From: Vulcanimicrobiota bacterium
Lineage (GTDB): Bacteria > Vulcanimicrobiota > Vulcanimicrobiia > Vulcanimicrobiales > Vulcanimicrobiaceae
Direction: 5' to 3'
DNA: 64,000 bases
NCBI GenBank assembly: GCA_963723515.1
Contig: CAVRQT010000001.1
Span: 64,001 to 128,000 of the forward strand
Below are positions 6,030 to 29,967 of this stretch, piece after piece (position 1 is the stretch's first letter; each line of letters begins with the position of its first letter). The position numbers were made by a program, and so were the translations under genes. Under the pieces are notes generated by a model. The model ran no database searches. It was not told the DNA's origin and worked only from the letters and a program-made list of their open reading frames with translations.

Positions 6030-6701
6030 CTACAGCTTGGTCACATGGAACAGCTGGAAGAACAGGCCGACTGAGAACGTTGCGAGCGCTGCGCCGGCGA
6101 CGACCTGCATGATCGTGTGCGCGCGCAAATAGACGCGCGCCCAACACACCATCGGAATCAACACCAAGAACGGCAACGGCTCGCGCCCGTACAGCAAACA
6201 GAGGACGACGAGGGGCGCAGTGATGCCGAGAGCATGGGTGCTGATCTTCCAATACCGGGTGATGTATTGGACGACGATCGTGCTGAGCGTGTAACCGGCA
6301 AGCGTCGCGATCAACAGACGCGGTGAGTGCATCAACCACAGCACGGCCGTTCCGGCGATATAAAAGATCACCACCGCTCCGAAGATACGCTCGCGTTCCA
6401 AGCGATTCGACATCTCGAGATCGGTGATGCGATCCGTCGAGTACATCCAGAAGATGAAGAGCATCGGCCCGATCGACGTGAAGAACGCGGTGAGAAACGC
6501 GAGCCACCAAAATGAAAGCGTGCTCGTGCTCGCCAGGGCATGAGCGAGGATCACGCAGAGTGCGAGCGCGCACAAGAACGGATTGAAGATGGTCGAGAGA
6601 ATCCGTGCTAGGTCGCGCCAGACATCACGCCGCTTGCGCAACGCGACCGGGGCTGCGGAGCTTGTCCTGAGCGAAGTCGAAGGGCCGCCTGTCCGCTCCA
6701 T
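6030..6701 (-). CDS. PAP2-family membrane phosphatase-like protein with an in-frame REP-derived peptide near the N-terminus
   Basis: WKISTH and WARVYLRAHT..QVVAG motifs; ATG at 6701 preceded by GGGAGAG. Confidence 0.75.
   Translation of the reverse strand: MERTGGPSTSLRTSSAAPVALRKRRDVWRDLARILSTIFNPFLCALALCVILAHALASTSTLSFWWLAFLTAFFTSIGPMLFIFWMYSTDRITDLEMSNRLERERIFGAVVIFYIAGTAVLWLMHSPRLLIATLAGYTLSTIVVQYITRYWKISTHALGITAPLVVLCLLYGREPLPFLVLIPMVCWARVYLRAHTIMQVVAGAALATFSVGLFFQLFHVTKL
6660..6686 (-). repeat. REP-like hairpin copy, in-frame in PAP2 gene (GPSTSLRTS)
   Basis: ggcccttcgacttcgctcaggacaagc on minus strand; 26/27 identical to 28447..28473. Confidence 0.9.
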
Positions 6702-6795
6702 TGCGGCGTCTCTCCCAATCGCGGCAGGGAAATCCTCGCATTCGAGGCCTTCGGGCAACGGACGCGCCGCCGCCTGCGTCGAACGAGGGCGGCCA

Positions 6796-8676
6796 ATGAT
6801 TCTCGAACGCATCAACCGCCCCGCCGACGTCAAGAAACTCTCTCGTCCCGAACTCGATGAACTAGCCGCCGAAATTCGCGAGCAACTCGTTTCGGTTTGC
6901 TCGCGCAACGGCGGCCATCTTGCACCGAACCTGGGCGTCGTTGAATTGACCCTTGCGTTGCATCGGGTTCTCAACTTGCCAAGCGACAGGCTCGTCTGGG
7001 ACGTGAGCCACCAAACCTACGTCCATAAGTTGCTCACCGGCCGGCGCGATCGTTTCTCGACGATCCGCAAAGGCGGCGGCCTCTCCGGGTTCGCGATGCG
7101 AAGCGAGTCGGAATACGATCCGTTCGGCGCGGGACATGCGTCCACAGGCGTCTCGTCGGCGCTCGGTATGGCAACGGCGCGCGATCTGACGCAACAGCAA
7201 CACGCAGTCGTCGCGGTGTTAGGCGACGGCGCGTTGACCGGCGGCCTGGCGTATGAAGCGCTCAATAACGCGGGGCAGCTGAAGACGAACTTCATCGTCA
7301 TCCTCAATGACAACGAGATGTCGATCGCGCCTAACGTCGGGTCGATTGCCTCATATCTCTCCGTCCTGCGCAGCAAGCCGATCTTCAACGCGGCGCGCGA
7401 GGCGACCAAGGACGTTCTCGACCACATCCCCTTCGGAGGCACCGCGCGCAAGGCGCTCTCAAGCGCGGAAGTCGGCGCGATCCGTTTCTTTGCGCCTTCC
7501 GAAAAGGCGGCGGTGATTTTCGAAGAGCTCGGATTCCGCTACATGGGGCCGCTCGACGGCCACAATCTGGACGTGTTGATCGATGCGCTGGAGACGGCGC
7601 GCAACATCGAAGGTCCCGTGCTGATTCACATTCGCACGATCAAAGGCAAAGGCTATGCCGTAGCCGAGTCGGACTCGCGCACGTTCCACGGCTGTCCGCC
7701 GTTCGAGATTCAAAATGGAACGATTGAGAAGAAGCCTGGTGCGCGCCCTACATTCGCCGATGTTTTCGGGGACGCGATGAACGTGGTTGCCGAACGCGAC
7801 TCGCGCGTTATCGGCATCACCGCCGCGATGCCGGACGGCACGAAGCTCTCAAAATTTGCGAAGCGTTTTCCGGATCGCTATTTCGACGTCGGCATCGCCG
7901 AAGCGCATGCGGTCTGCTTTGCGGCCGGCGCTGCGACCGCCGGACTCAAACCGGTCTGCGCGATTTACTCGACGTTCTTGCAGCGCGCGTACGACCAAGT
8001 CGTCCACGATGTTGTCGTTCAGAATTTGCCGGTCGTCTTCTGCATGGACCGCGCGGGTTTCGTCGGCGACGACGGTCCAACGCACATGGGGCTGTACGAT
8101 ATCGCCTACCTGCGCACGCTGCCGAACATGACGATCATGGCGCCGCGCGACGAAGATGAGCTTCTGCCGATGCTCGAGCACGCGCTTTCCCTCGACGCGC
8201 CGGCTGCGATTCGATATCCGCGCGGCAGCACCGCCGGCTCGCATCAGGAGCCGCATGCGCCGATCGTGCACGGCCGCGCCGAAGTGCTGCGTAAAGGAAG
8301 CGGCGTCGCCGTTCTTGCGCTCGGCAACACGGTTGAAACGGCGCTCGACGCCTACGATCTGTTGCCTGAGGACGGGCCGCGTCCGACGATCGTCAACGCG
8401 CGCTTCGCAAAGCCGCTCGATGAGCCGCTGCTGATCGAACTTGCCGGCGACCACGAGCGTTTTCTTACCTTAGAAGAACACTCGCTCGCGGGGGGCTTCG
8501 GTTCGGCGGTCGCGGAGTTCGTTTCGGATCACGGCCTTGGCATCTCGATCGAACGGATCGGCGTGCCGAACGTGCTCGTGCAGCACGATAGCCAGCCAAA
8601 ACAACGTGCCCAGTTCGGGCTGCAGGCCGAGAGCCTGGCAGCGCGGTTGGCGCTCAGGACGGAGTCCAAAGTTTGA
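6796..8676 (+). CDS. dxs: 1-deoxy-D-xylulose-5-phosphate synthase
   Basis: GGHLAPNLGVVELT, GHASTG, GDGALTGG, GIAEAHAV and DGPTHMG motifs; true start MILERIN at 6796. Confidence 0.97.
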   Translation: MILERINRPADVKKLSRPELDELAAEIREQLVSVCSRNGGHLAPNLGVVELTLALHRVLNLPSDRLVWDVSHQTYVHKLLTGRRDRFSTIRKGGGLSGFAMRSESEYDPFGAGHASTGVSSALGMATARDLTQQQHAVVAVLGDGALTGGLAYEALNNAGQLKTNFIVILNDNEMSIAPNVGSIASYLSVLRSKPIFNAAREATKDVLDHIPFGGTARKALSSAEVGAIRFFAPSEKAAVIFEELGFRYMGPLDGHNLDVLIDALETARNIEGPVLIHIRTIKGKGYAVAESDSRTFHGCPPFEIQNGTIEKKPGARPTFADVFGDAMNVVAERDSRVIGITAAMPDGTKLSKFAKRFPDRYFDVGIAEAHAVCFAAGAATAGLKPVCAIYSTFLQRAYDQVVHDVVVQNLPVVFCMDRAGFVGDDGPTHMGLYDIAYLRTLPNMTIMAPRDEDELLPMLEHALSLDAPAAIRYPRGSTAGSHQEPHAPIVHGRAEVLRKGSGVAVLALGNTVETALDAYDLLPEDGPRPTIVNARFAKPLDEPLLIELAGDHERFLTLEEHSLAGGFGSAVAEFVSDHGLGISIERIGVPNVLVQHDSQPKQRAQFGLQAESLAARLALRTESKV

Positions 8677-9017
8677 TCGATCTTCTCTTGGCGGCAACCT
8701 CAGCGCCGCTTCTAACGCCGGCGCCTATCGCGCCGAATCTTACGCCGACTCAAGTTCCGCATTCGTGGGTCGCGCAGCATTTGCCGTGGGCGACGCACGC
8801 GTTTGCGGGCCTCGCAATCATCTTTGCGCTCGCGTTGATCTTCTTGCTGGCGATTCAAACGACGAAGCAAGAGGGACTTTCGGGAACGATCGGCGGTCGC
8901 GTGGAGTCTGCATACCGCGGCCGGCTCGGCATGGAGGAAAACCTAAAGCGGTTGACCGGCTTTGTGGCGGTGTGCCTAGTCGTCTTCTGGGCGATCCTCT
9001 CGCTGACGGGAATCTAG
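8673..9017 (+). CDS. secG: Preprotein translocase subunit SecG
   Basis: Two TM helices flanking LLAIQTTKQEGLSGTIGG...LKRLT. Confidence 0.8.
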   Translation: MIDLLLAATSAPLLTPAPIAPNLTPTQVPHSWVAQHLPWATHAFAGLAIIFALALIFLLAIQTTKQEGLSGTIGGRVESAYRGRLGMEENLKRLTGFVAVCLVVFWAILSLTGI

Positions 9018-9048
9018 AGCGATAGTTTTCAAGCGACGCATCATTATC

Positions 9049-9177
9049 TGTCACCCTGAGCCAGCCTGTGCTGAGCGGCGTCGAAGCATCGAAGTGCCAC
9101 AGATCATGCCTTCTGCGACGGGCAATCACTTTGATCGCGCAAGATAGCGGCTGATGCTTCGACGAGCTCAGCTGACA
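9049..9177. repeat. Intergenic inverted REP pair; left copy has a second copy nested inside it
   Basis: tgtcaccctgagc-cag-[cctgtgctgagcggcgtcgaagca]-tcgaagtgcc at 9049..9098; inverted tgcttcgacgagctcagctgaca at 9155..9177. Confidence 0.85.
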
Positions 9178-9220
9178 GGGAGCGGTCTGCGTCCGTCATT
9201 AGCAGCGGAGCGCCTTCTAA

Positions 9221-10279
9221 TTGGCACTCCTAGAAGTTAAGAATCTTCGCACGACGTTTTTGACCGAAGACGGCTTGGTGACCGCCGTTAACGGTCTCTC
9301 GTATGCGATCGACGCCGGTTCCACGCTTGGCATCGTCGGAGAATCGGGATCCGGCAAGTCCGTCAACGCGCTCTCGATCATGCGGTTGATCCAGCGGCCC
9401 GGCAAGATCGAAGCCGGCGAAGTGTATTTGAACGGCGAGAATCTCCTGAAGAAGAGCGAGAACGAGATGCGCCACATTCGCGGCAACGAGATCGCTATGA
9501 TCTTCCAGGACCCGATGACCTCGCTCAACCCGGTGCTCACGATCGGCGAACAGATCTCAGAGGCGATTCAATTGCATCTCGGCTACAACCGCAAAGAGGC
9601 GCTTGCGAAGACGATCGACATGCTGCGGCTCGTCCGCATTCCCGCTCCGGAGAAGCGCGTGAGAGATTATCCGCACCAATTTTCCGGCGGCATGCGGCAG
9701 CGCGTCATGATCGCGATGTCACTCTCCTGCGAGCCGAAAGTTTTGATCGCCGACGAGCCGACGACGGCACTCGACGTCACGATTCAGGCGCAGATTCTGG
9801 AATTGATGAATGAGATGCAGACTCGCACCGGCACAGCGATCATCCTCATCACGCACGACCTGGGAATCGTCGCTGAAGTCTGCGAGAACGTTCTGGTAAT
9901 GTACGGCGGCAACATGGTCGAGTATGGCACGGCGGAACAGATCTTCGATCATCCGAAGATGCCGTACACGCAAGGCCTGCTCAGCTCGTTGCCGCGACTC
10001 GATGCGACCAAACCGGAACGCCTCGTGCCGATCAAAGGGCAGCCACCCAATTTGCTGCGCTTGCCGCCGGGTTGTGCATTCGCTCCGCGATGCGCCTTCC
10101 GGATGCCGATCTGCGATGAGCCCGTGCCGCTGTACGATTTCCAAGACGGCCATGTCGCGCGCTGCTACCTCTATGACGATCGCGCCGTCGGACAGCGGCC
10201 GATCGAGGTTGAGACCGCTCCCCGCGTTTCGCTCGAACAAGTCGCGGCAACGCCGCAAGAATTGGCGCAGAAGGCCTGA
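9221..10279 (+). CDS. oppD: Oligopeptide/dipeptide ABC transporter ATP-binding protein (OppD-like)
   Basis: [24 protein letters not shown] and C-terminal GCAFAPRC oligopeptide domain. Confidence 0.9.
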
Positions 10280-11342
10280 TGGCGATCGCAGAAGCTGCGC
10301 CGCAAACGACGGTCGGCGAAGAGCTGCTCGGCGTCAAAGACCTTTACAAGTACTTCCCGATTCACGCCGGGCTGATGTCGCGGCACGTCGGCGACGTCAA
10401 GGCGGTTGACGGCGTCGATTTTTCGATTGCGCACGGTGAGACGCTGGGACTCGTCGGAGAGTCGGGCTCCGGCAAGACGACGATTGGGCGCGTCATTTTG
10501 CGGCTGCTGCCTGCAACGCGGCGGCGAGGTCTTATTCGAAGGTCAGAATGTCTTGGCGCTCAGCCGCAACGAGGTCCGGAAACTGCGCAAAGAGATGCAG
10601 ATCATCTTCCAAGATCCGTTCGCGTCGCTCAACCCGCGGATGACGGTGGGCGATATCGTCGGCGAGCCGCTAAAAATTCACGGAATCGCCTCCGGGCGTG
10701 CCGGCGATGAGCGCACGCAAGAACTCCTGCGGCTCGTCGGCTTGCAGCCGTACCACGCGAATCGTTATCCGCACGAATTTTCCGGCGGTCAACGGCAGCG
10801 TATCGGCATCGCACGGGCGCTCGCGGTCGATCCGAAATTCATCGTCTGCGATGAGCCCGTTTCCGCGCTCGACGTCTCGATTCAAGCGCAGGTCATCAAC
10901 TCTGCTCGAAGATTTGCAGGCCAAACTCCGCTTGACGTATCTCTTCATCGCGCACGATCTCTCGGTCGTGCGGCACATCTCGACCCGAGTCGCCGTCATG
11001 TATGTCGGCAAGCTCATGGAGCTGGCCGATCGCGATTCGCTCTACGAAAATCCGCTGCACCCGTACACGCAGGCGTTGCTTTCCGCCATTCCGATTCCCG
11101 ATCCGCGCGTCGAACGGCGCCGTAAACGGATTATCTTGATGGGCGATATCCCTTCGCCCGTGAATCCGCCGTCCGGCTGCCGTTTTCACACGCGCTGCCC
11201 CATTGCGTTCGATCGCTGCCGCGTGGAAATTCCGCCGTTCAATGAGTACAAACCGGGCCATTTTGCGGCGTGCCACTGGGTAGAAGAACACGGGGGCCAA
11301 GCGCCCGATTTAGCGGGCGACGCTGCAGCGAGCGCGGCCTAA
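10279..11342 (+). CDS. oppF: Oligopeptide ABC transporter ATP-binding protein (OppF-like); frameshifts near 10520 and 10900
   Basis: [16 protein letters not shown] and [16 protein letters not shown] spread over three overlapping ORFs. Confidence 0.88.
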
Positions 11343-11349
11343 AAAAATG

Positions 11350-11378
11350 AAAAACCGGCCAGTTTATGGCCGGTTTTT
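11350..11378. terminator. Bidirectional intrinsic terminator
   Basis: aaaaaccggcca-gtt(t)a-tggccggttttt hairpin with A and T tails between convergent genes. Confidence 0.85.
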
Positions 11379-11399
11379 CGCTGCTGTGCGGCGCTAGCG

Positions 11400-11786
11400 T
11401 TAGCTTTTCTTGCGGCCGCCCTTTTTGCGACGCCCGCCTTTACGGCCGGACGATTTCTTACGGCCACCGCTCGATTTCTTGCGGCCACCGCTCGATTTCT
11501 TACGGCCGCCTTTGCGCCCGCCCGATGATTTCTTACGGCCGCTTGATTTCTTGCGTCCGCTCGATTTCTTGCGTCCACCTTTGCGGCCGCCCGTTGATTT
11601 CTTACGCCCGCCGGTTGACTTCTTACGGCTGCCGGTTGATTTCTTACGGCCGCCGGTTGATTTCTTGCGGCCACCGCCGCCTTTTCTGCTACCCGAAGAT
11701 TTGCGACGGCCCGATGATTTTCTGCGTCCGCGACCGGACGTTTCCATGTCCATCGTTTCGCCGTTTTGCATCATGTCGGAATCCAT
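11400..11786 (-). CDS. Highly basic low-complexity protein with RKKS[ST]GG repeats (histone-tail/protamine-like)
   Basis: ATG at 11786 with GAGAGAGG RBS; synonymous third-position variation among repeats; terminator immediately downstream. Confidence 0.8.
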   Translation of the reverse strand: MDSDMMQNGETMDMETSGRGRRKSSGRRKSSGSRKGGGGRKKSTGGRKKSTGSRKKSTGGRKKSTGGRKGGRKKSSGRKKSSGRKKSSGGRKGGRKKSSGGRKKSSGGRKKSSGRKGGRRKKGGRKKS

Positions 11787-11871
11787 CGATGTCCTCTCTC
11801 GTCCCTTCGGACGAACATGATTGATATTGGGCGCGCCGATGTTCGGCGCTTGTGCGTGCATCGTACATTTT

Positions 11872-11889
11872 TTTGCAAGATATTGCAAA
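11872..11889. promoter_or_regulatory. Palindromic operator-like site TTTGCAA-gata-TTGCAAA
   Basis: 7-bp perfect inverted repeat in AT-rich divergent intergenic region. Confidence 0.4.
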
Positions 11890-11927
11890 TGATGAACGCG
11901 CGCGGGACGCGCGTCCGACACTCGAAA

Positions 11928-11958
11928 TTGACGGCGCCCTTGACGCTCGGTATATACT
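11928..11958 (+). promoter_or_regulatory. Sigma70-type promoter for topA, possibly leaderless
   Basis: TTGACG at 11928 followed by TATATACT at 11951..11958; GTG start 7 nt after TATACT; no RBS. Confidence 0.55.
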
Positions 11959-11965
11959 TAGCCCC

Positions 11966-14083
11966 GTGAAAAAGCCCCTGATCATCGTTGAGTCGCCGAC
12001 GAAAGCGCGTACGATCAAGAAGTTCTTGCCGCCGCGCTACACCGTTAAGGCGTCAGTGGGCCATGTCCGCGACCTTCCAAAGAGCACGCTGGGCGTCGAT
12101 ATCGAGCATGATTTCGAGCCGCGATACCTGACGATTAAAGGTAAGGGCGAGGTCATCAAAGACCTCAAGGGTGCGCTGAAAACAGCCGATGACGTGTACC
12201 TCGCGACCGATCCCGACCGCGAAGGTGAAGCGATCGCCTGGCATCTCGCGGAACTTCTGAAACTGCACGATCCGAAGCGGATCGAGCTGCACGAAATCAC
12301 CAAAGAAGCGGCCATGGCCGCGCTGCGTGCGCCGCATCGCATCGATCACAATCGCGTTAATGCGCAGCAGGCGCGGCGCATCCTCGACCGCATCGTGGGC
12401 TATAAGATCTCGCCGCTGCTCTGGTCGAAAATCCGTGGGGGTCTCTCAGCCGGACGCGTTCAGTCGGTGGCGGTCAAATTGATCGTCGAACGCGAGCGCG
12501 AGATCGAGCGTTTCGTCCCCCAAGAATATTGGTCGATTACCGCCTTTCTCTCGCCGCAAGATGACGACGGCGCACTTTTCCCCGCCGACTTGATCCTCGT
12601 TGACGGCGAGAAGATTCAAATTTCGAACGGCGGTCAATCTTCCGCAATCGTTTCGGACCTCGAAGGCGCGCGCTACGTTGTAGAAACCGTCAAACGGCGA
12701 GAGGCACGGCGCAATGCACCGCCGCCGTTCACGACCTCAACGCTGCAGCAAGAAGCGTCCAAGCGTTTAAAGCTGCGCGTTCGGCGCACAATGCAACTGG
12801 CGCAAGCGCTCTATGAGGGCATCGATCTCGGCGCTGAGGGGACGCAGGGCTTAATCACCTATATGCGCACCGATTCGACGCGCATCTCCGATTCGGCGCG
12901 GGAAGCGGCGCGCAACTACATCGTTCAGAAGTACGGCGCGCAGTATCACAGCGGACGGCGAACATCGCGTTCGTGAAGGTGCCCAAGACGCGCACGAAGC
13001 GCTGCGGCCGACATCCATTGAGCGCACGCCCGACACGCTGGCGAACGTGCTCAAGCGAGACGAGCTTCGCCTTTACACGTTAATCTGGCAGCGTTTCGTC
13101 GCCTCACAAATGTCGGCGGCGGTCTTCGATCAGACGACCGTCGATATTACGGCGCAACGTCCGCAAGCGCAGCACAAATACACATTTCGTGCGACCGGCA
13201 GCGTAATGAAGTTCGCGGGGTTCACGGAAGTCGTATAAGGAATAAGGAAGACGATGGGAGCAAGGCCGCGACTCACGGTCGCACGCTCTTGCCTGAAATG
13301 GCGGACGCACAGGCCCTGAGCTTTCACCGGCTCGAGTCGAAACAGCACTTCACCGAGCCGCCGCCGCGCTACACCGAAGCCTCGCTCGTCAAGGCACTCG
13401 AAGACAACGGCATTGGGCGTCCTTCGACGTACAGCACGATCGTCGAAACGATTCAGGCGCGCCAATACGTCACCCAAGAAGACCGCCGCTTCCATCCGAC
13501 GGAGATCGGTATTGCCGTCAACGATCTGCTCGCAGAGCATTTCCCCGACGTCGTCGATCTCGACTTCACCGCTTCAATGGAAAGCGATTTGGATCGCGTC
13601 GAGGACGGCCAAGAAGATTGGGTCTCGCTGCTCAAGCGTTTCTACGGACCCTTCAAAGCGGAGCTCGATCAAGCGCAACGCATGTTGCCGAAGGTTGAAT
13701 TCCGCGATGAGCCGACCGATGAAGTCTGTCCGAATTGCGGCCGCCCGATGGTGATCAAATCGGGGCGCTTCGGCCGCTTCGTCTCGTGCACCGGATATCC
13801 CGAATGCAAGACGACGCATCCCTTGATCGTCGACACCGGCGTGCGCTGCCCGGTCGACGGCGGAATCATCGCCGAACGCCGTTCGCGCAAAGGCCGGGTG
13901 TTCTACGGTTGCGTCAACTATCCGAAATGTGACTTCGTTCTCTGGGATCGTCCGCTGCCACAGGCGTGTCCGGTCTGTGGCGCGCTGGTTGTCGAAAAGA
14001 CGAAGCGCGGCGGCGTGACGCAAATCGAATGCAGCGCCGATCGCACGCATGAAGTCGGACCGGCGACGGCAGCGGTATCGTGA
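11966..14083 (+). CDS. topA: DNA topoisomerase I with C-terminal zinc ribbons; frameshifts near 12960 and 13233
   Basis: IVESPTKA, ATDPDREGE, GRVQS, ITYMRTDS, GAQDAHEA, GIGRPSTY and C4 zinc fingers. Confidence 0.95.
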
Positions 14084-15477
14084 GCGCGTGCATTACGGTC
14101 ATCGGCGGCGGTCTGGCCGGCTGCGAAGCGGCGTGGCAGGCAGCACGCAGCGGTGCGGATGTCGAGCTGATAGAAATGCGGCCGGCGCGGCGAGGTCCAG
14201 CGCATCATACTGCGGATCTTGCGGAGCTGGTTTGCAGCAATAGCTTTCGGGGCGCCGCGCTCGAGAATGCGGTCGGCCTCCTCAAAGAAGAGCTTGTGCA
14301 CCTCGATTCCATTATCATCAGCAGCGCGCGGGAATGTGCTGTCCCGGCCGGCGGCGCACTGGCGGTCGATCGAACACGCTTCTCGCAGTTCGTGCAAACG
14401 CGATTGCTGGAAGAACCGCGCGTGACCATCCGCCGAGAAGAAGCCACTCGTATTCCACGGGATCGGCCAGCGATCGTTGCCTGCGGGCCGCTTCCGAGCG
14501 AAGCGCTGATCGACGATATCGATGCGCTGCTGCAAGAAGCCGGTGCGCGCTCGCGGCTCCACTATTATGACGCCGCTTCACCGATTGTCGCCGCTGATTC
14601 GATCGACACGACGAAGATGTATGCGAAGGCGCGCTATGATAAAGGCAACGGCGACGACTATCTGAACATCCCGCTCGACGAAACGCAATACCGCGACTTC
14701 CTCGCCGACTTGCGATCTTTGCCGCAGCACGAACCCAAAGAATTTGAATGCGATGCTTCGGGTGGGCGGCGACCGTTCTTCGAGGGGTGCCTCCCGATCG
14801 AAGAGATGGCGTCTCGAGGCGACGACGTTCTCCGATTCGGTCCGTTAAAGCCGGTCGGTCTGCGCGATCCGCGCACCGGAAAAACGCCGTATGCCGTCGT
14901 TCAATTGCGCAAGGAGAACGCACAAGCAACCGCCTTGAATTTGGTCGGCTTTCAAACGCGCATGACGTGGCCGGCACAAAGGGAGGCATTTTGCAAACTG
15001 CCGGGGCTGCACGATGCGGAGTGGCTGCGGCTCGGCGTGATGCATCGCAACACGTTCATCGATTCGCCGCGGCTGCTAGATGAAGAGTTGCGATTGCGTG
15101 GCCCTTCGACAGGCTCAGGACAAGCGCTGCATTTTGCCGGCCAAATCACCGGCGCCGAAGGCTACGTCGAAGCCGCCGCATGCGGCGCAATCGCGGGAAT
15201 CGCCGCTGCGCGACGCGCGTTGCACCTGCCGGCGGTGCGCATTCCACGCGAGACCGCACTCGGCGCGGTGATTGCTCATTTGCAGAACGACGTCACGCCG
15301 GATTTTCAGCCCTCGAACGTGACGTGGGGCGACTTTCCGTCGCTCGATGGCGCGCCTAAGGACAAGAAGGCACGCCGTCGGCAAATGGCGCAACGCGCGC
15401 TCGAATCGCTTGTGCATTTCCGCAAGGCAATCGGGCGCGAGACGGCCGGTGGAACCTTGTTGGCACGCGTCGGGTAA
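14080..15477 (+). CDS. trmFO: tRNA (uracil-54)-methyltransferase TrmFO
   Basis: [33 protein letters not shown] and [11 protein letters not shown] motifs; follows topA. Confidence 0.95.
15100..15125 (+). repeat. REP-like copy in-frame within trmFO (GPSTGSGQA)
   Basis: ggcccttcgacaggctcaggacaagc between LRLR and LHFAGQ. Confidence 0.9.
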
Positions 15478-20912: not shown

Positions 20913-21067
20913 TTGAGTCGTCGTGGTTCAGCCTCGTGATGATTTTTCGTCGAGTTCGAGGCGCGAGGACGGACGCAATGCCGCAGCGCATTGTGGCCGC
21001 CGCAGTAACGATGAAATCGACAAAAAGCGTCCGAGGATCAACCTCGTGCGATTCAATCGGAGGCCCT
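20902..21067. mobile_element. MITE-like ~166-bp palindromic element
   Basis: Terminal inverted repeats agggcctctgattgagtcg / cgattcaatcggaggccct plus internal nested inverted segments. Confidence 0.6.
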
Positions 21068-21087
21068 TACACTAGAGGCCCTCTATC

Positions 21088-21519
21088 GTGACCTTCACCG
21101 CGCACATGCGCTTGGGATCTGTCGGCGCGCTCGTCGCGATGGCGGCGTTCGCCGTGGCGGCGTTTCGCACGCGGCGTCCATCCGCTGTTCTCGGAGTCGG
21201 CAGCGCTTCCGACATGACGATGAAAATCGAACTCGAGGTGATCGAGCGGGACGAGCGGCGGCGCGTCGAAGGGAGCTGTCCCTTTGTCGTGGGGCGGTCG
21301 TCAGACGCGGATCTGCTCCTCTGGGATCCGGAGGTCAGCCGGCGCCACGCACGGTTTGAAAATGATGGCACAACGGTCTTCGTTAGCGATCTGCATAGCA
21401 GCAACGGAACGTTCCTTAATGGGCGTGGCCTCACGGAAAGCGTTGAAGTGCGTCCAGGCGATCACATTGATGTCGGCACCGTGCGCTTAACGTTCATCGG
21501 AAGTCAGCCGTGCAGCTGA
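21088..21519 (+). CDS. Membrane-anchored FHA domain protein (FhaB-like)
   Basis: N-terminal TM; VGRS...VSRRH...SSNGT. Confidence 0.85.
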   Translation: MTFTAHMRLGSVGALVAMAAFAVAAFRTRRPSAVLGVGSASDMTMKIELEVIERDERRRVEGSCPFVVGRSSDADLLLWDPEVSRRHARFENDGTTVFVSDLHSSNGTFLNGRGLTESVEVRPGDHIDVGTVRLTFIGSQPCS

Positions 21520-22325
21520 CAATCAGGGGCCAGCGCCGCCGCTACCTGCAGTTGACGCTCGGATCGCAAACGCGCGCGTATGCGGTCTGCAATGGTTTCG
21601 GAACGATCGACGGTCAGCCGATTGAAGAGGCAACCTTGGGTGAGCTCCAGGCGACGCTGCAACGCCGATCGCGCGGCGCGCGCTTTGCCTACCAAATTGC
21701 GAAGCCCAAGGCGATGGCAGCCTTCCTCATCGCTGTCGTTTCGCACTTGAATGCGTACTTGTTCAAACGGAGTGCTGCACACGAAGATTACGTTACCAGC
21801 GGCGCCTCACTAACCTTGATCCTGATCTGCAAAGAACGAGCCTATCTTGCGCATGTCGGAACAACGGCGGCGTACGTCGTCCGTAGCGGCTACGTCGTGG
21901 CGTTAACGAAAGATGATTCGTGCTCGTTCGATGACGCTTCGACGGGCTCAGCGCAGGCTGATCAGCCGGCGCGCATTTTAACGCGCGCGCTGGGCATCGG
22001 TTCGCAGATGCAAATGAGCGTCTGCAGTTTTCGCGTCGCCTCAGGCGACACGCTGGTGCTGGCCAGCAAACGGCTCGCCACAGTCGAGGACCGCCGGGCG
22101 CTAGCAAGATGGATCATGCACCATGACGGTTCGTCGGCTGTCCCTTTGAGGACGCTTGTGCTGAGCGGCGTCGAAGCATCGAAGGGCGGCGAACACACCG
22201 TGGCCGCGGTGCCGATTCGGATGGCGCCGCTTGTTCCGGCGACGGTCGCATCTTCTGCTCGTTCGCCGCTCTGGTACGCGATGGTCGCGCTGCTCTTGAG
22301 TTTGCTTCTGATTATCTCCGCTTGA
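21510..22325 (+). CDS. PP2C/PPM-fold protein lacking catalytic aspartates, with C-terminal TM
   Basis: AYLAHVG, LTKD, LTRALG and GDTLVL scaffold motifs; occupies the pstP position between FHA genes and rodA. Confidence 0.7.
   Translation: MQLTIRGQRRRYLQLTLGSQTRAYAVCNGFGTIDGQPIEEATLGELQATLQRRSRGARFAYQIAKPKAMAAFLIAVVSHLNAYLFKRSAAHEDYVTSGASLTLILICKERAYLAHVGTTAAYVVRSGYVVALTKDDSCSFDDASTGSAQADQPARILTRALGIGSQMQMSVCSFRVASGDTLVLASKRLATVEDRRALARWIMHHDGSSAVPLRTLVLSGVEASKGGEHTVAAVPIRMAPLVPATVASSARSPLWYAMVALLLSLLLIISA
21936..21958 (+). repeat. REP-like copy in-frame in PP2C-like gene (ASTGSAQA)
   Basis: gcttcgacgggctcagcgcaggc. Confidence 0.8.
22140..22187 (+). repeat. Nested REP-in-REP, in-frame in PP2C-like gene (VPLRTLVLSGVEASKG)
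   Basis: tgtgctgagcggcgtcgaagcatcgaag is identical to 9067..9094. Confidence 0.85.
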
Positions 22326-23560
22326 TCGCGCTCTGGATACGCCGCTTAACGCCGCTTCTTGCGGCGTTTGCCATTGCGGCGATCCTCTTGAGCATGGCAC
22401 CGGCGGAAAATCTCGGCTCGGTCTGGGGCTTGCTTCTCTTAGCTGCGCTCGCGCTCGCCTGGGTGATCTTTCAACCGGCGGGCGCCATACGCGACGATTT
22501 TTTGCCGGCCAGCGCGGTCTTGATTTCCGCGGTTGGCTTATCGATGATCGCGCGGCTCTCCGGCGAGCTCGCGCGCAAGCAAGAGCTCTGGTTATTCGTT
22601 TCGCTGATGCTCGTGCTGATGCTCGGACCGGCATTTTCGCGCTTTCGCCGGCTCGCCGCATTCAAATATCTCTGGGTGATCGGGTCGATTGTCTTGTTCG
22701 GGCTGCTCGCAGTTTTCGGACAAGAAGTCAACGGTGCGCGACTCTGGATCCGCATCGGCAGCGTTCAATACGAGCCGATCGAGCTGATCAAACTCTTCAT
22801 CGTCTTTTTCCTTGCCGCGTATCTTGCGGAAACGGCCGATGTGATTGCCAACGCGCGGCCATGGTCGGTGCGTGCGAACCTCAAATACCTTGGGCCGCTC
22901 TTCATCGGCTGGGGCGCCTCAATGGCGATTTTAGTCTTGCAGCACGATCTCGGTATGGCCGTGTTGCTGCTCGTGACGTTCATTGCGGTGCTCTATGTTG
23001 CGACCCGTCGCATCGATTTGATCCTGGGGAGCTTGGCGACGTTCGGTGTCGTTGCGGCATGGGCCGCACATCACTTCTCCTACGTGCAAACGCGCATCGC
23101 GGTGTGGCGCAATCCGTTCGGGGATCCGCTCGGCGCCGGATTTCAATCGAGTCAGGGCTACTACTCGCTCGCTGCGGGCGGCTTGCTTGGAACGGGCTAC
23201 CGCTTAGGCCACCCCGGATTCATCCCCAACGTCGCGACCGACTACGTGTATGCAGCGTGGAGCGAAGAGTTCGGGCTCGTCGGCGCGGTCGTGCTTCTCT
23301 TGCTCTACTTAGCGATCGTTTGGCGTGCGCTCACGATAGCGCGCGCACAGCCGGACCTCTATACGCGTCTGCTGGCAGTCGGGCTCGCAGCGATCCTGGG
23401 CTTTCAAGTGCTGATCATCGTCGGCGGAGTGATCGGCCTCTTTCCGTTGACCGGCATTACCTTACCGTTCATGTCCTACGGCGGAAGCTCGCTCGTTGCA
23501 AACTTCCTCTTAATAGCATTGGTTTGGGCAATCAGCTCGAGAAGCTTTGCGGCGAAATAG
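22322..23560 (+). CDS. rodA: FtsW/RodA/SpoVE family SEDS protein
   Basis: NGARLWI, EPIELIK, TDYVY..WSEEFG and PLTGITLPFMSYGGSS motifs. Confidence 0.88.
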   Translation: MIALWIRRLTPLLAAFAIAAILLSMAPAENLGSVWGLLLLAALALAWVIFQPAGAIRDDFLPASAVLISAVGLSMIARLSGELARKQELWLFVSLMLVLMLGPAFSRFRRLAAFKYLWVIGSIVLFGLLAVFGQEVNGARLWIRIGSVQYEPIELIKLFIVFFLAAYLAETADVIANARPWSVRANLKYLGPLFIGWGASMAILVLQHDLGMAVLLLVTFIAVLYVATRRIDLILGSLATFGVVAAWAAHHFSYVQTRIAVWRNPFGDPLGAGFQSSQGYYSLAAGGLLGTGYRLGHPGFIPNVATDYVYAAWSEEFGLVGAVVLLLLYLAIVWRALTIARAQPDLYTRLLAVGLAAILGFQVLIIVGGVIGLFPLTGITLPFMSYGGSSLVANFLLIALVWAISSRSFAAK

Positions 23561-23629
23561 GGACGGGCCCGCAACCCGTATTCAGGTATCGCTGTCATAA
23601 TTTAAGACAAAAATGCGTTGCTTACTGTG

Positions 23630-24472
23630 ATGTCGTCTACATTACGCCGATTTTCGGCCGTCTTTTTCATCGCGGCTGCTTGCGTTGCCGCATCGGGCGC
23701 TAACGCCGCACAGTCGAAAGGCGACGCGCTGCTTCAGAAGATCAGGGTCGTCTTTCGATCGCATCGGCCGCCGCCGCCCTACATTACCTACACGCTCCAT
23801 CGCGAATCGATCACCGAGCAAGGCTACACGGATTACACCGCAACCTACACCTACCACATCTGGTGCCGGAGCTCCGATCGTGCCGCGCTGGGTCGCAAGG
23901 TGTTCCGGGATGAAGCGCGCGGGGACTTAGAGTTTCTGCGGCCGGAATTCAACCAGGATCGCGATCCCGGACCGCCTACCGCCGACGTCTTCGAGCGCGC
24001 GCCGGTCCATCCGCAGCCCGTTGAAGTTGCTCCGACGCCGGAGCCCGTTGCCGCTCCGGCCGTCATCGGTTCCGTCACGGCATACGGCGAGCTCGAGTAT
24101 CATGTGACGGCGGTGCAGACTGAGGGCGACCTTCTCCATTTGAGCGTCGTGCCGTTCCGCGATCCCGACCGGAATCGGCTGCGTGAGATTTACGTTGACA
24201 AGAAGACGCTGGAGCTCCGCAAATTGATCGCGACCGACAAGCTCTTCATCGGAAACGCTGAAATTCACCCGGTGCGATTTACGATCACGATGGCGATGCA
24301 GGATGGGCGACCGCTCGTAACCGCTATTCACGCTGAAACGACCGACGATTACAAGGGCGATAGCCATATCACGGACTACACGTTCACGGACATCAAATTC
24401 CCGAGCTCACTGCCGGATTGGTATTTCAACGCGCACTCCTATGCGATGCATACCGGCGAAGCGCCTTTGTAA
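23630..24472 (+). CDS. Hypothetical secreted protein, paralogue 1
   Basis: Signal peptide; high similarity to the next ORF. Confidence 0.75.
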   Translation: MSSTLRRFSAVFFIAAACVAASGANAAQSKGDALLQKIRVVFRSHRPPPPYITYTLHRESITEQGYTDYTATYTYHIWCRSSDRAALGRKVFRDEARGDLEFLRPEFNQDRDPGPPTADVFERAPVHPQPVEVAPTPEPVAAPAVIGSVTAYGELEYHVTAVQTEGDLLHLSVVPFRDPDRNRLREIYVDKKTLELRKLIATDKLFIGNAEIHPVRFTITMAMQDGRPLVTAIHAETTDDYKGDSHITDYTFTDIKFPSSLPDWYFNAHSYAMHTGEAPL

Positions 24473-25298
24473 TTTTCTCGCACTGCTTGCGGCGTTCGTT
24501 TTGAGCGCCGCGCCGTTGCCTTCGAACGCCGGTCTTTCGAAAGGTGACGAGCTGCTGCAGAAGATCCGCGCAGTCTTTCGTGCGCACCGTCCTCCGCCGC
24601 CGTACATCACGTACACGCTCGTGCGCGCGCAAGATACTGCGCAAGGGTATCCCGACTTCGAGTGGAGCTACACCTACCATATCTGGTGTCGCACATCCGA
24701 CCTGGCGGCGCTCGGCCGAAAAGTGTACCGCGGCGACGCGCGCGGCCCATTAGAATTCTTACGTCCGGAGTTCAATCAGGCACGCGACCCTGGTCCTCCG
24801 ACTGCAGATGTCTTCGAACGCGCGCCGGCACATCCACAATCGATTGACGTCGTGCCCACCCCTGAACCGAGCGGCATACCGGCGACGATCGGATCGGTTA
24901 CGAGCTATGGTGAGCTCGAATACCATGTAACCGCCGTCCGTACTGAAGGCGATCTTTTGCACTTGAGTTTGCGGCCCATCAGAGATCCGGACCGCAACCG
25001 GCTACGGGAAATCTACGCTGAGAGAACGAGCTTCGAGCTGAAGAAACTGATTGCGACGGATAAACTGTTCATCATGCCGTTTGACGAGGTCCATCCGCAG
25101 CTCTACACGATAACGATGGGAACGGTCGAAGGACGCCCCGTCGTCACGGCCATTCACGGCGTTACGACGGACGATTACAATGACGACGGCCGGGAAGTAG
25201 ACTACACGTTCAAAGATATCAAGTTTCCGAAGTCGCTGCCCGATTGGTATTTCGACGCGCATGTCTACGCGATGCACTCGAACGAAGCGCCGTTATGA
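24441..25298 (+). CDS. Hypothetical secreted protein, paralogue 2
   Basis: Shares HRPPPPYITYTL, YHIWCR, RDPGPPTADVFE and RDPDRNRLREIY with the previous ORF. Confidence 0.75.
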   Translation: MRCIPAKRLCNFLALLAAFVLSAAPLPSNAGLSKGDELLQKIRAVFRAHRPPPPYITYTLVRAQDTAQGYPDFEWSYTYHIWCRTSDLAALGRKVYRGDARGPLEFLRPEFNQARDPGPPTADVFERAPAHPQSIDVVPTPEPSGIPATIGSVTSYGELEYHVTAVRTEGDLLHLSLRPIRDPDRNRLREIYAERTSFELKKLIATDKLFIMPFDEVHPQLYTITMGTVEGRPVVTAIHGVTTDDYNDDGREVDYTFKDIKFPKSLPDWYFDAHVYAMHSNEAPL

Positions 25299-25868
25299 TT
25301 TCAAAAGCTCGATCGCGAAGAGCTCCTTGATGTAGTCGCTCATGCCGGCGTCGATGCGGCGCAGGCGCTCGCGCGTCGCATTGGGCCAGCAAGACGCCGG
25401 ATCGTTTGCTCCGACGTATGCCCGCATCGACTCGGCAAAGTATTCATCGATACCGGTCGCGGCATATGGCGTTACGAAATCGCGCGCGGTTTCGAAGAGC
25501 GAACGCAGATCCGGATCGACGCACGATCGGTAGATGCCGCTGCCCAGCGCACAATCCAACGCATGTCCAAACTCGTGCGCCACCGTCATCGGGCTGCGCG
25601 AACGAAGATAGACGGTTCGTTCTTCAACGACGAACAGACCGGCGGGGGGCGACGGCCAGCCGTCGATCGACGGGCACAATCGCCGTAATGCGCTGGACGC
25701 TTCTGCGTACGATTGCGAGCGGCGTAACGGAACGATGCGAATGCCGGCGCGGGCGGCGAAGTCGAGCGCCGGTTTACCGAAGAGCGCAAGCGTTCGGCCA
25801 ACGGCAGCACGGGACGACGGATGCGCATGAAGCAGCAGGGCGCCGAGCGGCGAATTATGGACACACAC
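25293..25868 (-). CDS. Zinc metallopeptidase, anthrax lethal factor/Pro-Pro endopeptidase-like
   Basis: AHEFGHALD followed by YAAT..DEYFAES. Confidence 0.65.
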   Translation of the reverse strand: MCVHNSPLGALLLHAHPSSRAAVGRTLALFGKPALDFAARAGIRIVPLRRSQSYAEASSALRRLCPSIDGWPSPPAGLFVVEERTVYLRSRSPMTVAHEFGHALDCALGSGIYRSCVDPDLRSLFETARDFVTPYAATGIDEYFAESMRAYVGANDPASCWPNATRERLRRIDAGMSDYIKELFAIELLKS

Positions 25869-25957
25869 CGCCCCACTCTCCGCGCCGCATATTGCAAGCG
25901 AATGTCGTCCGCGTGTCCGTTGGATGAACGCGCGCCGTTCGCGGAAGGGAGGACGTC

Positions 25958-27781
25958 ATGGCTCCGTATCAAGCGCCTCTGCGTGACATGCAGTTTGCGT
26001 TGCGCGAGCTTGCCGGTCTCGATCAGATCGTTGCGCTGCCGGAGTTTGAAGACAGTGGCGACGTCGTTGATGCGATCCTCGAGGAGGCGGCGACCTTTGC
26101 GAGCGAGGTGCTCGATCCGCTCAACCAATCCGGCGATAAGGAAGGGTGCACGTGGAACGCCGGTGAGGTAACGACCCCCAGCGGCTTCAAAGATGCGTAT
26201 GCGCGCTTCGCTCAATCGGGTTGGATTGGACTGCCCGTCCCATCCGAATACGGCGGACAAGGTTTACCGCAGTTGCTGCTCGGTCCGACGCTCGAGATGT
26301 GGAACGCCGCCAACGTCGGCTTCGCGAACGGACCGCTGCTCAATCAAGGCGCGATCGAAGCGATCGAGTTGGCCGGCTCCTCGCAACAGAAGGAACGCTA
26401 CATTCCGAAGCTTGTTTCGGGCGCATGGATGGGCACGATGTGTTTAACGGAGCCGCAAGCCGGGTCTGATTTGGCCGCGGTGCGCACCAAAGCGGTTCCG
26501 CAAAACGACCACTATCTGATCAGTGGTCAGAAGATCTTCATCACCTTCGGCGAGCACGACCTGGCGGAGAACATCGTGCATTTGGTGCTCGCGCGCCTGC
26601 CCGACGCGCCGGAAGGCACAAAGGGCATCTCGATGTTCATCGTCCCGAAATACGTCCCGAACGCCGATGGTTCGCTTGGAGAGCGCAACGACGTCTATTG
26701 CGCCGGCATCGAGCATAAGATGGGACTCAACGCGAATCCGACGTGCACGCTCAACTACGGGGAGCGCAAGGGCGGCGCCGTCGGCTATCTTGTCGGCGAG
26801 CCTAATCGCGGGCTGGAGTACATGTTCGTCATGATGAACGCGGCACGTTTTTCGGTCGGCGTTCAAGGCTACGCGATCGCGGACCGAGCGTACCAGCGCG
26901 CGCTCGAGTATGCCAAAGAACGCGTGCAAAGCCGCGACGTCGCATCAAGCAGTTATCAGGCGGTTCGCATTATCGAACATCCGGACGTGCGTCGAATGTT
27001 GATGACGATGAAAGCCCAAGTTGAGGCGATGCGCGCGCTCTCATACGTCGCAGCGGCGGCGCTCGATCTTTCGAACCGTCACCCCGACGCAGCGGTGCGC
27101 AAAGAGCGTAAAGCGTTCGTCGAGTTGATGATTCCGGTCGTCAAAGGTTGGTGCACGGAAACGGCCCAAGAAGTCACCTCAACGGCTCTGCAAGTTTTCG
27201 GCGGCATGGGCTACATCGAAGAGACGGGTGTCGCGCAGCAGTATCGTGACGTTCGGATCACAACAATCTATGAAGGCACGACGGGCATTCAGGCGCTCGA
27301 TCTGGTCGGCAGAAAATTGCTCCGCGACATGGGTGGAACGGCGACCGCGGTCATCGCAGAGATGAAGGCCTTCGCCGAAGCGCTCGATGGCACGCACGAC
27401 GCGGATCTCAAAGCGATTGCAACGTCCGTTCGCAACGGTGTCGGCATTTTGGCGGAAGTTTCGCAATGGATCGGCATGAATGCGATGGGGGATTTGCGCA
27501 AAGCCTTCGCCTGCTCCGTGCCCTATCTGCGGCTTTGGGGAATCGTGGCCGGGGGCTGGCAGATGGCGCGCGCGGCTCAGATTGCACGATCAAAGATCGA
27601 TGCGAACGATCCGGAGAGCGATTTTTATCGCGCGAAGCTGACGACCGCACGTTTTTACGCCGACCACATCTTAACGCAAGCCGCTTCTTTGCGTGCGCAA
27701 ATCGTCGACGGCTCAGCGGACGTCATGGCGATGCCTGAAGCGCACTTCGACCTGGATCGTACGACGGCCGCGCTCGTCTAA
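25958..27781 (+). CDS. Acyl-CoA dehydrogenase (long form)
   Basis: YQAPLRD, MCLTEPQAGSD, GQKIFIT, EHKMG and IYEGTTGIQA motifs. Confidence 0.93.
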   Translation: MAPYQAPLRDMQFALRELAGLDQIVALPEFEDSGDVVDAILEEAATFASEVLDPLNQSGDKEGCTWNAGEVTTPSGFKDAYARFAQSGWIGLPVPSEYGGQGLPQLLLGPTLEMWNAANVGFANGPLLNQGAIEAIELAGSSQQKERYIPKLVSGAWMGTMCLTEPQAGSDLAAVRTKAVPQNDHYLISGQKIFITFGEHDLAENIVHLVLARLPDAPEGTKGISMFIVPKYVPNADGSLGERNDVYCAGIEHKMGLNANPTCTLNYGERKGGAVGYLVGEPNRGLEYMFVMMNAARFSVGVQGYAIADRAYQRALEYAKERVQSRDVASSSYQAVRIIEHPDVRRMLMTMKAQVEAMRALSYVAAAALDLSNRHPDAAVRKERKAFVELMIPVVKGWCTETAQEVTSTALQVFGGMGYIEETGVAQQYRDVRITTIYEGTTGIQALDLVGRKLLRDMGGTATAVIAEMKAFAEALDGTHDADLKAIATSVRNGVGILAEVSQWIGMNAMGDLRKAFACSVPYLRLWGIVAGGWQMARAAQIARSKIDANDPESDFYRAKLTTARFYADHILTQAASLRAQIVDGSADVMAMPEAHFDLDRTTAALV

Positions 27782-27792
27782 GCCAAGGTAAC

Positions 27793-29967
27793 GTGCCCAA
27801 AATAGCGACTCGCGACCACGACGGCGTTCGAGTGCTGACACTCGACAATCCGCCGGTCAATGCATTGTCGTTTGCATTCTCAGCGATGTTGCTCGATGCG
27901 GTGAAGGCGGCCGAAGAGGATACGGCCGTTCGCGCCGTCGTCTTTGCCGGCGCAAATGGAATGTTTAGCGGCGGCGCGGACGTCAACGATTTCAACGCTC
28001 CGATCACGCCTGAGACGACTACGGTCCGGGATGTTATTGCGGCGATCGAGCTCGGACGAAAAACCTACATTGCTGCGATTGAAGGCACTGCTCTCGGCGG
28101 CGCGCTGGAAGTCGCGCTCGCCTGCGATTACCGGATCGCCGCACAGAATGCGAAGCTTGGCTTGCCGGAGATAAAACTTGGATTGATTCCGGGCGCAGGC
28201 GGAACGCAGCGCTTGCCGCGCTTGATCGGCGCACAACCCGCATTGCAGATGATGCTCAAAGGCGAGCGCGTCGATGCGGATGAGGCCCTGAGGCGCGGAA
28301 TCCTCGATGAAGTCGTTGCGCAAGACGTTGTCGATGCCGGAAGTGCGCTAGCGCGCCGCAATGTCGATGCGCATGCGCACGCAAAGCGACGCATCTCAGA
28401 GCTTCCCTCGGCGTTGCTCGGGACAGGCTCCGTTGAAATCGGCGCCGGCCCTTCGACATCGCTCAGGACAAGCGTCGCGGCCTTCGCATTGCCGTTCGTC
28501 GTCGCCGAGGCGCATAAGATGCTGCCGTCCGAAGAGCGTGGCGGTTTTGCGGCTCACAAACTCGTGGATGCGGTTCAGGCGTCGTTCGAGTTGCCGTTCC
28601 CGCGCGGCCTCGCGCGCGAGTTTCGGCTGTTCGAAGAATGCGCGCGCTCGCCGCAGTCGTTCGCACTGCGCCACCTTTTCTTCGCAGAACGGGAGCTTTC
28701 GAAGATCCCAGATTTAGAACCGGCGGAGGCTTTGCAAATCAAGACCGCCGGTGTCCTCGGTGGCGGCACGATGGGAACCGGAATTGCAATCACCTTTGCT
28801 AATGCCGGCATTCCGGTTACGGTCGTTGAGCCTGCCGAAGAACAGATCGCGCGCGCCAAGCAGATGATCTTCGGGATGTTCATGCATCAAGTGCAGCGCG
28901 GCCGGCTGACGCAAGAGGAGGCGTGGAATCGAGGCCGGACGATCGTCTTTACCGGCGATCGTGCCGCTTTGCGCGAATGCGACCTCGTGATCGAGGCCGT
29001 CTTTGAAAATCTCGACCTCAAGAAGCACGTCTTTGCGGAACTCGACGGCCTGCTTGAGCCCAATGCAATCCTCGCAACGAACACGTCGACGCTAGACATT
29101 GACGCGATGGCGGCCGTCACGAAGCGTCCGGATCGATTCTTGGGACTGCATTTCTTTGCGCCGGCGAATATCATGAAGCTGCTGGAAATCGTCCGTGGGG
29201 GCGCGACCTCGGCGCAGACGTTGACGACCGCATTGAAATTGAGCAAGACACTGCGCAAGATCGGCGTCGTCTCGGCGAACGCCTTCGGTTTCATCGGCAA
29301 TCGAATGCTCTTCGATTACGCGCGCGAGGCGGTGCGGCTCGCGGAAGAAGGCGTCGCACCGTATCGCGTGGATGCGGTCATCAGGGATTTCGGCTTTGCG
29401 ATGGGACCCTTCGCGATGTTCGACCTCTCCGGAATCGACGTTTTCCGGTACATACAACAGGCGTCGGGGCAACAGTTGGGGCGAACGGCGATTGTCGACC
29501 GGCTTTACGACGAAAAGCGGCTCGGTCAAAAAGCTGGACGCGGGTTCTATAAGTACGCGGCAGGCAGCCGCGATCCGGAACGGGATGACGACGTGGAGCG
29601 CATCTTCTCTGAGGAGGCACGCGCACTGGGCATTGCGGTGCGCGATCCGAGCGACGAAGAGATCACCAAGCGTTTGGTGTACGCGCTAATCAATCGCGGC
29701 GCCGAGTTGCTGCGCGAGGGAGTCGCGCTGCGACCTGGCGACATCGACATCGTGTACATCTATGGTTACGGCTTTCCGCCACATCACGGTGGCCCGATGT
29801 GGTACGCGGATGAAGTCGGCGTGCGCGACGTCTATGATGATGTCGTGCGTTTCGAACGTGACTTCGGAGAGCATTGGGCGCCTTCGCCGCTCTTGGCCGA
29901 GATCGCGCAATCGGGCGGCACGCTTGATACCCACGCGCCCACACGCAGAGAGCTTGCCCATGCGTGA
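27793..29967 (+). CDS. Bifunctional enoyl-CoA hydratase/3-hydroxyacyl-CoA dehydrogenase
   Basis: [36 protein letters not shown] and GLHFFAPA motifs. Confidence 0.93.
28405..28473 (+). repeat. Two in-frame REP-like copies (degenerate PSALLGTG; intact GPSTSLRTS)
   Basis: ccctcggcgttgctcgggacaggc at 28405..28428 and ggcccttcgacatcgctcaggacaagc at 28447..28473. Confidence 0.85.

Follow-up and report, generated by a model that had tools for sequence, protein, structure and literature searches.

In-frame insertions of a short hairpin repeat in unrelated proteins of a Vulcanimicrobiota bacterium, and a GIY-YIG nuclease gene bracketed by the repeat

Two described systems come close to the repeat that we report here. 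First, Ssn proteins are GIY-YIG nucleases that act on single-stranded DNA and are found with the repeats known as NTS and SRM (Chenal et al. 2025, PMC11893778). In the available parts of that paper, NTS are rarely in genes (2%). Second, CGTC-tagged repetitive extragenic palindromic sequences (REPs), which include the Rickettsia palindromic elements RPE-4 and RPE-6, have intragenic copies that encode short peptides (Di Nocera et al. 2013, PMC3733652). In the sections of that paper drawn on here, CGTC REPs are said to lack a dedicated transposase, and their mode of movement was left open. We describe a repeat with the core CTTCGAC-N2-3-GCTCAG in a 64-kb stretch of DNA (hereafter, the window) from a Vulcanimicrobiota bacterium whose genome (G000; 2.11 Mb) is 88% complete. 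A first-pass annotation of the window had proposed that a recently active, REP-like mini-element is adding peptide to protein loops and termini at high density. It had also argued that repeats entering open reading frames (ORFs) have precedents, as the coding insertions of such repeats in PMC3733652 bear out.

As judged from sequence comparisons, the in-frame insertions of this mobile repeat are real and well supported; coding insertions of REPs are themselves already known. We think it probable that the peptides are in-frame insertions of a short form of the hairpin. This form was likely spread by a GIY-YIG nuclease whose gene is bracketed by the repeat, and insertions in genes were likely kept only if the gain was a multiple of three and lay in a tolerant loop or terminus.

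The window contains six genic copies of the repeat in four genes (Table 1). These are unrelated genes, and the copies are where the first-pass annotation had placed them: five of the six match the core exactly, and the sixth, which is decayed, scores 18.9 bits with a matrix for the short form. All four host ORFs are open, with the expected peptides in their predicted translations. The hosts are a PAP2-like protein, TrmFO (above the NCBIfam cut-off), a PP2C-like protein (below the cut-off), and an enoyl-CoA hydratase/3-hydroxyacyl-CoA dehydrogenase. As had been noted, the copies in the PAP2 and dehydrogenase genes are nearly the same (1 of 27 bases differs).

We compared these proteins to their orthologues, including those in another genome from the same genus (G001; 77% complete; 120 of about 230 contigs, or 899 kb, were compared). 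This comparison had been set beforehand as the one that could refute the insertions, and the orthologues lack the peptides. By these alignments, all six copies are extra sequence and are best described as in-frame insertions. TrmFO has five extra residues relative to 29 of 29 orthologues (two of which are from the unpublished genomes G020 and G022) and relative to a solved structure (PDB:3g5q), which we take to be the Thermus protein. In G001 and in a metagenome relative, the site reads G-F-E-A. We infer that the net gain in trmFO combines an insertion with a short deletion, the latter across a GCTT microhomology. The PAP2-like protein has its eight extra residues, relative to G001, between the aligned ATG/GTG starts and the conserved core, so this case depends on the start codon.

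The other two genes each have two sites. At site 1 of the PP2C-like gene, eight codons are absent from 7 of 7 close metagenome orthologues (65-86% identity). Site 2 forms a series: four relatives (L237-L240) have no copy, another (L235) has one hairpin copy (VLSLSKG), and G000 has a short copy nested in a decayed host copy. In the hydratase/dehydrogenase, two 8-column stretches are filled in none of the 17 orthologue rows that cover the region, and the protein is 16 residues longer there than a relative with 70% identity. (In the part of G001 that was compared, there was no match to a PP2C-like or hydratase orthologue.)

Peptide is added to loops and termini, as had been proposed. The TrmFO insert lies in a predicted coil (residues 340-349 of a model from 27 sequences), with a predicted local distance difference test (pLDDT) score of 59 for the block and 83 and 69 for the flanking blocks, and the PAP2 insert is in an N-terminal extension. 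The inserts in the hydratase/dehydrogenase are placed by Pfam boundaries only: the exact copy is C-terminal of the enoyl-CoA hydratase match (residues 9-196) and N-terminal of the dehydrogenase domain (319-494).

Table 1. Copies of the repeat in the window, and further proteins with inserts elsewhere in the genome
Feature	Location	Position in window	Strand	Gain or peptide
Short copy, 3-nt loop, antisense to gene	PAP2-like gene (6030-6701, minus)	6660..6684	+	PSTSLRTS, N-terminal extension
Short copy, 2-nt loop	trmFO (14080-15477)	15102..15125	-	net +15 nt (+5 aa)
Short copy, 2-nt loop	PP2C-like gene (21510-22325), site 1	21935..21958	-	exact +24 nt (ASTGSAQA)
Exact short copy (22154-22178) directly 5' of TCGAAG in older decayed host copy	PP2C-like gene, site 2	22139..22187	+	
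Decayed short copy	hydratase/dehydrogenase gene (27793-29967)	28404..28428	-	+8 aa (PSALLGTG)
Exact short copy	hydratase/dehydrogenase gene (27793-29967)	28449..28473	-	+8 aa (PSTSLRTS)
Long (TGTCA) copy with short copy (9064-9088) nested in its loop	intergenic	9049..9096	+	
Inverted partner copy, variant tag	intergenic	9155..9178	-	
Cluster of four long copies	intergenic	47695..47911	47695, 47751, 47805 on +; 47888-47911 on -	
Further decorated proteins (L499, L501, L503-L507)	50S-binding GTPase; HAD hydrolase; FakA; methylmalonyl-CoA mutase; NuoL; class-III aminotransferase; RNase E/G			GTPase, HAD hydrolase, and FakA +8 each; mutase +6; NuoL +4

Similar insertions are found elsewhere in the genome. 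Among 863 genes that were matched between G000 and G001 (median identity 83%), gaps of at least 4 residues comprise 41 with extra sequence in G000 and 24 with extra sequence in G001. A motif filter flagged six of the G000 gaps and none of the 24 reciprocal ones. On reading the codons of the flagged gaps, we kept five and dropped one (C3:329457, +12 amino acids), which has no likeness to the repeat. We also added a decayed copy, the gap in FakA, which the filter had not flagged, so the repeat accounts for 6 of the 41. The class-III aminotransferase has seven more residues than 4 of 4 relatives. RNase E/G is longer than in three relatives but equal in length to the G001 protein, which has a decayed look-alike; this appears to be an older site. 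A candidate internal insert at C2:583618 was rejected; that copy is beyond the ancestral stop codon and makes a C-terminal extension.

These comparisons also bear on the age of the insertions. The repeat is recently active, as the first-pass annotation had it, to judge from exact copies whose sites have no insert in G001 or in close relatives from metagenomes, but two sites are apparently common to G001, so the insertions differ in age. At PP2C site 1, the HAD hydrolase, and the GTPase, clean insertions of 24 nucleotides lie at sites that did not resemble the repeat beforehand.

The core is far more frequent than expected by chance, both in the window (11 exact matches versus 0 in 100 shuffles) and across the genome (162 exact matches). 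A reversed-genome control had no matches to the exact short or exact long patterns. When we allowed one mismatch, we found 211 cores in G000, of which 116 are the long form, 65 are the short form, and 30 are other. With a matrix for the short form, trained on intergenic short copies only, there were 85 matches (versus 3 in the control), 20 of them genic. Because 6 of these 20 lie in the window and 0.6 are expected (P = 4e-5, with no correction for the choice of this window or for there being about 33 windows), the high density of insertions is local; the 6 of 41 gaps in 863 genes do not extend it to the whole genome. About 3-4 of the 20 genic matches, as well as the short-form match at C3:352233, are probably due to chance, given the 3 control matches genome-wide at the same threshold. 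We identified no cause for the genic clustering (window 6660-28473, or C1:70660-92473); local hopping or a region-specific single-stranded state would be guesses. As for the neighboring genes, a topoisomerase I-like gene upstream of trmFO appears to be split over three called ORFs (11966-12976, 13047-13238, and 13298-14083; there is no core there), and a second ABC-transporter ATPase region (9924-11342) is fragmented, with ORFs that overlap and differ in frame.

Could the peptides have been selected for a function, for instance as phosphorylatable Ser/Thr linkers? Besides the clustering in the window, 11 of the 20 genic matches are in the one Ser/Thr/Gly-rich frame. But codon composition would lead us to expect about a third (p = 0.035). 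The short form is also present in at least 124 viral stretches (IMG/VR, L375-L498), where 36 of the 112 copies with full flanks sit in a frame that is open for 90 codons on both sides; among those 36, the counts for the five open frames are 9, 8, 8, 7, and 4. With the bias marginal in G000 and absent in the viral set, we rejected it as a sign of selected peptides. Furthermore, older copies decay and the host proteins are unrelated. We consider selection for function to be extremely unlikely; the peptides would instead be tolerated passengers, probably with little effect on the proteins that carry them.

We then examined the structure of the repeat. The long form has a TGTCA tag and the short form, at 23-25 bases, has a GCYTG tag; both share the element YN-CTGAGC-N2/3-GTCGAAG-N'R', whose outer pairs covary. 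The loop is 2 nucleotides in 113 of 116 long copies and 3 nucleotides in 38 of 65 short copies. The inner flanking pair of the stem is Watson-Crick in 56 of 65 short copies and 100 of 116 long copies, with three pair types in use, while shuffles gave means of 21 and 41 and maxima of 34 and 63 (short and long, respectively; the copies are kin). The repeat is REP-like and has a covarying hairpin, but the palindrome is weak, and we rejected a strong one because predicted folds are no more stable than shuffles. What is general is a 4-bp Watson-Crick outer part around a non-complementary interior, not a stem of 8-9 bp with a loop of 4-5 nucleotides. Given that energy models show no special stability, the hairpin would be a short stem around probable G.A mismatches. 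In addition, five sites (C2:544536, C3:30527, C3:282206, C4:1174, and C4:26539) have a third type of tag, CCAAG, within a longer GC-rich inverted repeat with the same hairpin core.

The short form had been thought to be the intragenic form of the repeat, but 47 of the 65 short copies are intergenic. Of these, 31 are nested in another hairpin (one is at 9064 in the window). Nevertheless, short copies are in genes more often than long copies are (13 of 65 versus 7 of 116, p = 0.006), and they lie deeper: 9 of the 13 are over 20 codons from both ends of the gene, while none of the 7 genic long copies is farther than 20 codons from an end. At C2:479113, C2:663220, and C3:142673, the TGA of a short copy apparently serves as the stop codon of a called gene. 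(The copy at C2:479113 is common to G001.) There is also a composite repeat with four copies (C2:631459, C2:636880, C3:287093, and C3:760877), in which a GC-rich hairpin is followed by a short copy and then by a conserved tail.

Nesting occurs at a defined point: 33 of the 65 short copies are directly 5' of TCGAAG in a host hairpin, and beside the nuclease gene they are up to three deep. The net gain is mostly 24 bases with a 2-nucleotide loop, or 25 bases with a 3-nucleotide loop because a leading A comes along. Among short copies with a 3-nucleotide loop, this A is kept in 27 of 30 intergenic copies but in 3 of 7 genic copies (p = 0.015, with small numbers), as a frame filter would give. We found no target-site duplication at empty/filled pairs, which have 0-2 junction bases in common, so the repeat lacks the combination of terminal inverted repeats and target-site duplication that marks a MITE, or miniature inverted-repeat transposable element.

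The nested pattern is widespread. We found it in at least 125 stretches from GTDB, including Proteobacteria, Bacteroidota, Chloroflexota, Planctomycetota, Actinomycetota, and others. Among the nested matches listed, 109 of 127 have the host half-hairpin upstream, and the junction varies by a base or two among lineages. We considered a universal leading A or a strict target word and rejected both on the viral and GTDB sets. Within the family, 179 of 206 genomes contain the core, with up to 465 copies, and 5 of 24 relatives have the exact short form.

What might move the repeat? G000 has three GIY-YIG genes, and one of these, a 100-amino-acid gene on C3 (290985-291284; PF01541, above the cut-off), is bracketed by inverted copies: five sense copies upstream and four antisense copies downstream, with inverted long copies on both sides. 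Its catalytic motif is intact (across 14 homologues, Y17, R27, and E65 are invariant and Y7 is nearly so). At the loci of the 14 homologues, copies are on both sides in 11; the layout is the same inverted one, with the tags outermost, in nine, is opposite in two, and is incomplete in three. No two of these loci have a flanking gene in common. (One of them, L077, is from the unpublished genome G022.) The nuclease genes (L031:1423-1725 and homologues P0002-P0007, L077-L085) run into the downstream repeat and end in HTSTSSV or PSTGSG. For five homologues (L081 from G014, L086 from G004, L083, L087, and L091), the flanking hairpins are variants whose loops are longer and branched. Two of these homologues, L081 and L086, are paired in the tree and have the same variant hairpin, which suggests that enzyme and repeat co-vary.

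The first-pass annotation had suggested that either this type of nuclease or a REP-associated tyrosine transposase (RAYT) might be flanked by the repeat. Only the former was found. A RAYT or IS200-type HUH transposase is the known route for GTAG REPs, and with the genome 88% complete, such a gene might be missing from the assembly or might have been lost. But there are no matches to the Y1/HUH family PF01797 in G000, while the control was positive in 6 of 14 genomes. Also, the gene that the repeat does flank is a GIY-YIG gene, and PMC3733652, in the sections drawn on here, found no transposase linked to CGTC repeats. Mobilization by an HUH enzyme is very unlikely.

By analogy with Ssn, the GIY-YIG nuclease would bind the hairpin as single-stranded DNA and would nick it or look-alike sites. 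Host repair would then copy or join the short unit into the break; the 3' junction would be precise, and the 5' junction would vary by a few bases. Selection would keep the in-frame products in loops and termini.

The co-occurrence of the nuclease and the repeat in the family is in favor of this account: of 55 genomes with the nuclease, 36 contain 20 or more exact cores, versus 3 of 19 listed genomes without it (medians of 41 and 2). Several observations weigh against it. The co-occurrence is overstated, as the genomes are kin and 41 further nuclease-negative genomes were left out. There are exceptions of both kinds, with fewer than 20 exact cores in 19 of the 55 genomes that have the nuclease and 29-44 in three that do not. 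G001 (77% complete) has short copies but no match to the nuclease. As to the repeat itself, 5 of 6 folds do not improve on shuffles (best z = -1.3), which leaves covariation, with assumed G.A pairs, as the basis for the hairpin. Beyond a G and then Y/C, genic target sites have little in common. In the viral and GTDB sets, there is no conservation of the leading A. One result is against an insertion at PP2C site 1: in the distant G013 (47% identity), the loop there is just as long, with an unrelated sequence, although the seven closer relatives lack the eight codons. The 2,212 genes of G000 are our own calls, from a self-trained hexamer model. Finally, for Ssn, cutting is what was demonstrated and mobility was raised as a hypothesis, at least in the available parts of PMC11893778.

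The exceptions without the nuclease are also what we would expect if host processes alone, such as template switching or gene conversion between hairpins, spread the repeat and the nuclease gene were a passenger. Homologous hairpins contain half of the short copies, there is a resemblance between the short tag and the long form's loop region, and microhomology links the trmFO junction to its empty site. On the other hand, there are the clean insertions at the three sites that did not resemble the repeat, and the nuclease gene recurs between inverted copies in unrelated gene contexts. The two tree-paired homologues with the variant hairpin also argue for a link between the enzyme and the repeat. 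We view host processes alone as quite unlikely, and we favor the nuclease.

A stronger claim is that a clade of 100-residue GIY-YIG proteins, outside the characterized Ssn group, mobilizes a unit of about 24 bases, which would place it among the smallest mobile DNAs. By cutting at a defined point in its own hairpin, the enzyme would cause the unit to stack in sister copies and, at look-alike sites, to write eight-residue peptides, across many phyla and phages. We offer this tentatively, as a possibility that we would not yet bet on. If it is true, it supplies the missing mobilizer for CGTC-type REPs. An active nuclease would also be a candidate single-strand cutter, one whose specificity a search for SRM would miss. 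Beyond what was described for the CGTC REPs, we have empty and filled states at base level at several sites, a three-step series within one gene (empty, single, and nested), a defined insertion point, and a candidate enzyme. With a fixed insertion point and base-level empty/filled sites, the cleavage site and a mobilization assay can be specified. The repeat also explains recurrent junk peptides (including LVLSxVEx, FDKLS, and ACPE) and spurious N- or C-terminal extensions in annotations.

How does this system compare to the known ones? By analogy, it appears to work as Ssn/NTS and the CGTC REPs do, with its membership in either not established. As in the Ssn system, so far as the available text describes it, there is a small single-domain GIY-YIG gene (about 100 residues, with the catalytic residues) between oriented hairpin repeats that have a C/TGTC tag, hundreds of dispersed copies, and co-occurrence of gene and repeat. 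What we see could belong, as a divergent member, to the published Ssn/SRM (CGTC-REP) system, with an ordinary Ssn, and the copies in genes could be a known by-product of CGTC REPs, given the intragenic ones listed in PMC3733652. The TGTC tag, the C that follows the stem in many free long copies (78 of 114), the single-domain gene between oriented repeats, and 40% identity (53.5 bits) of the nuclease to an SRM-flanked protein all fit this. After the stem of the free long copies, the commonest bases are C, C, and A, at 78, 47, and 66 of 114. However, the published SRM pattern has 9 sites in G000 versus 10 in the reversed control (or 11 versus 12 under another reading of the gap), and two named genomes with nested repeats have SRM enrichments of just 0.62 and 0.48 in Supplementary Data 4 of PMC11893778. 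In a tree of 44 proteins, whose deep nodes are unresolved, four SRM-flanked proteins form their own branch (support 100/100), apart from this nuclease group. Also, the stem here is imperfect with probable internal G.A mismatches, and a short form has been derived from the repeat, which enters genes and has a fixed nesting site. The words "nested", UPF0213, and cd10456 do not occur in the main text of PMC11893778, and the core words are absent from 12 of its 14 supplements. We found no published description of this repeat or of its nesting, in a search that did not cover subscription journals or figures. We judge membership in the published system to be unlikely.

The nuclease is about as far from another family of stand-alone GIY-YIG proteins, UPF0213 (YazA/YhbQ), which includes its best PDB matches (1zg2 and 1ywl). 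These are similar in size, fold family, and sequence (35-40% identity; 35%, or 50.4 bits, to YazA). However, our sample of YazA-type proteins falls on a branch of its own (98/97), and a flanking core is lacking at 7 of their 8 loci. (G000 also has a separate YazA-type gene.)

Among repeats, the CGTC REPs, as described in part of PMC3733652, are also oriented repeats of 20-40 nucleotides with a TGTC tag (here, on the 116 long copies), dimers and clusters, intragenic peptides, and no HUH transposase. They differ in having stems of 8-9 bp and loops of 4-5 nucleotides, where only the 4-bp outer stem is general in G000. The gene-invading short form here has lost the TGTCA tag for GCYTG. In REP-RAYT systems, the repeat flanks an HUH Y1 gene, and G000 as assembled has no match to PF01797.

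As with the Rickettsia element RPE-1, in its published outline, repeat-derived peptides that are absent from orthologues are found in frame in unrelated proteins. RPE-1 is about 150 bp long. The unit in G000 is far shorter, at eight codons, and is unrelated in sequence, and it has a defined target in its own sequence and a linked nuclease gene.

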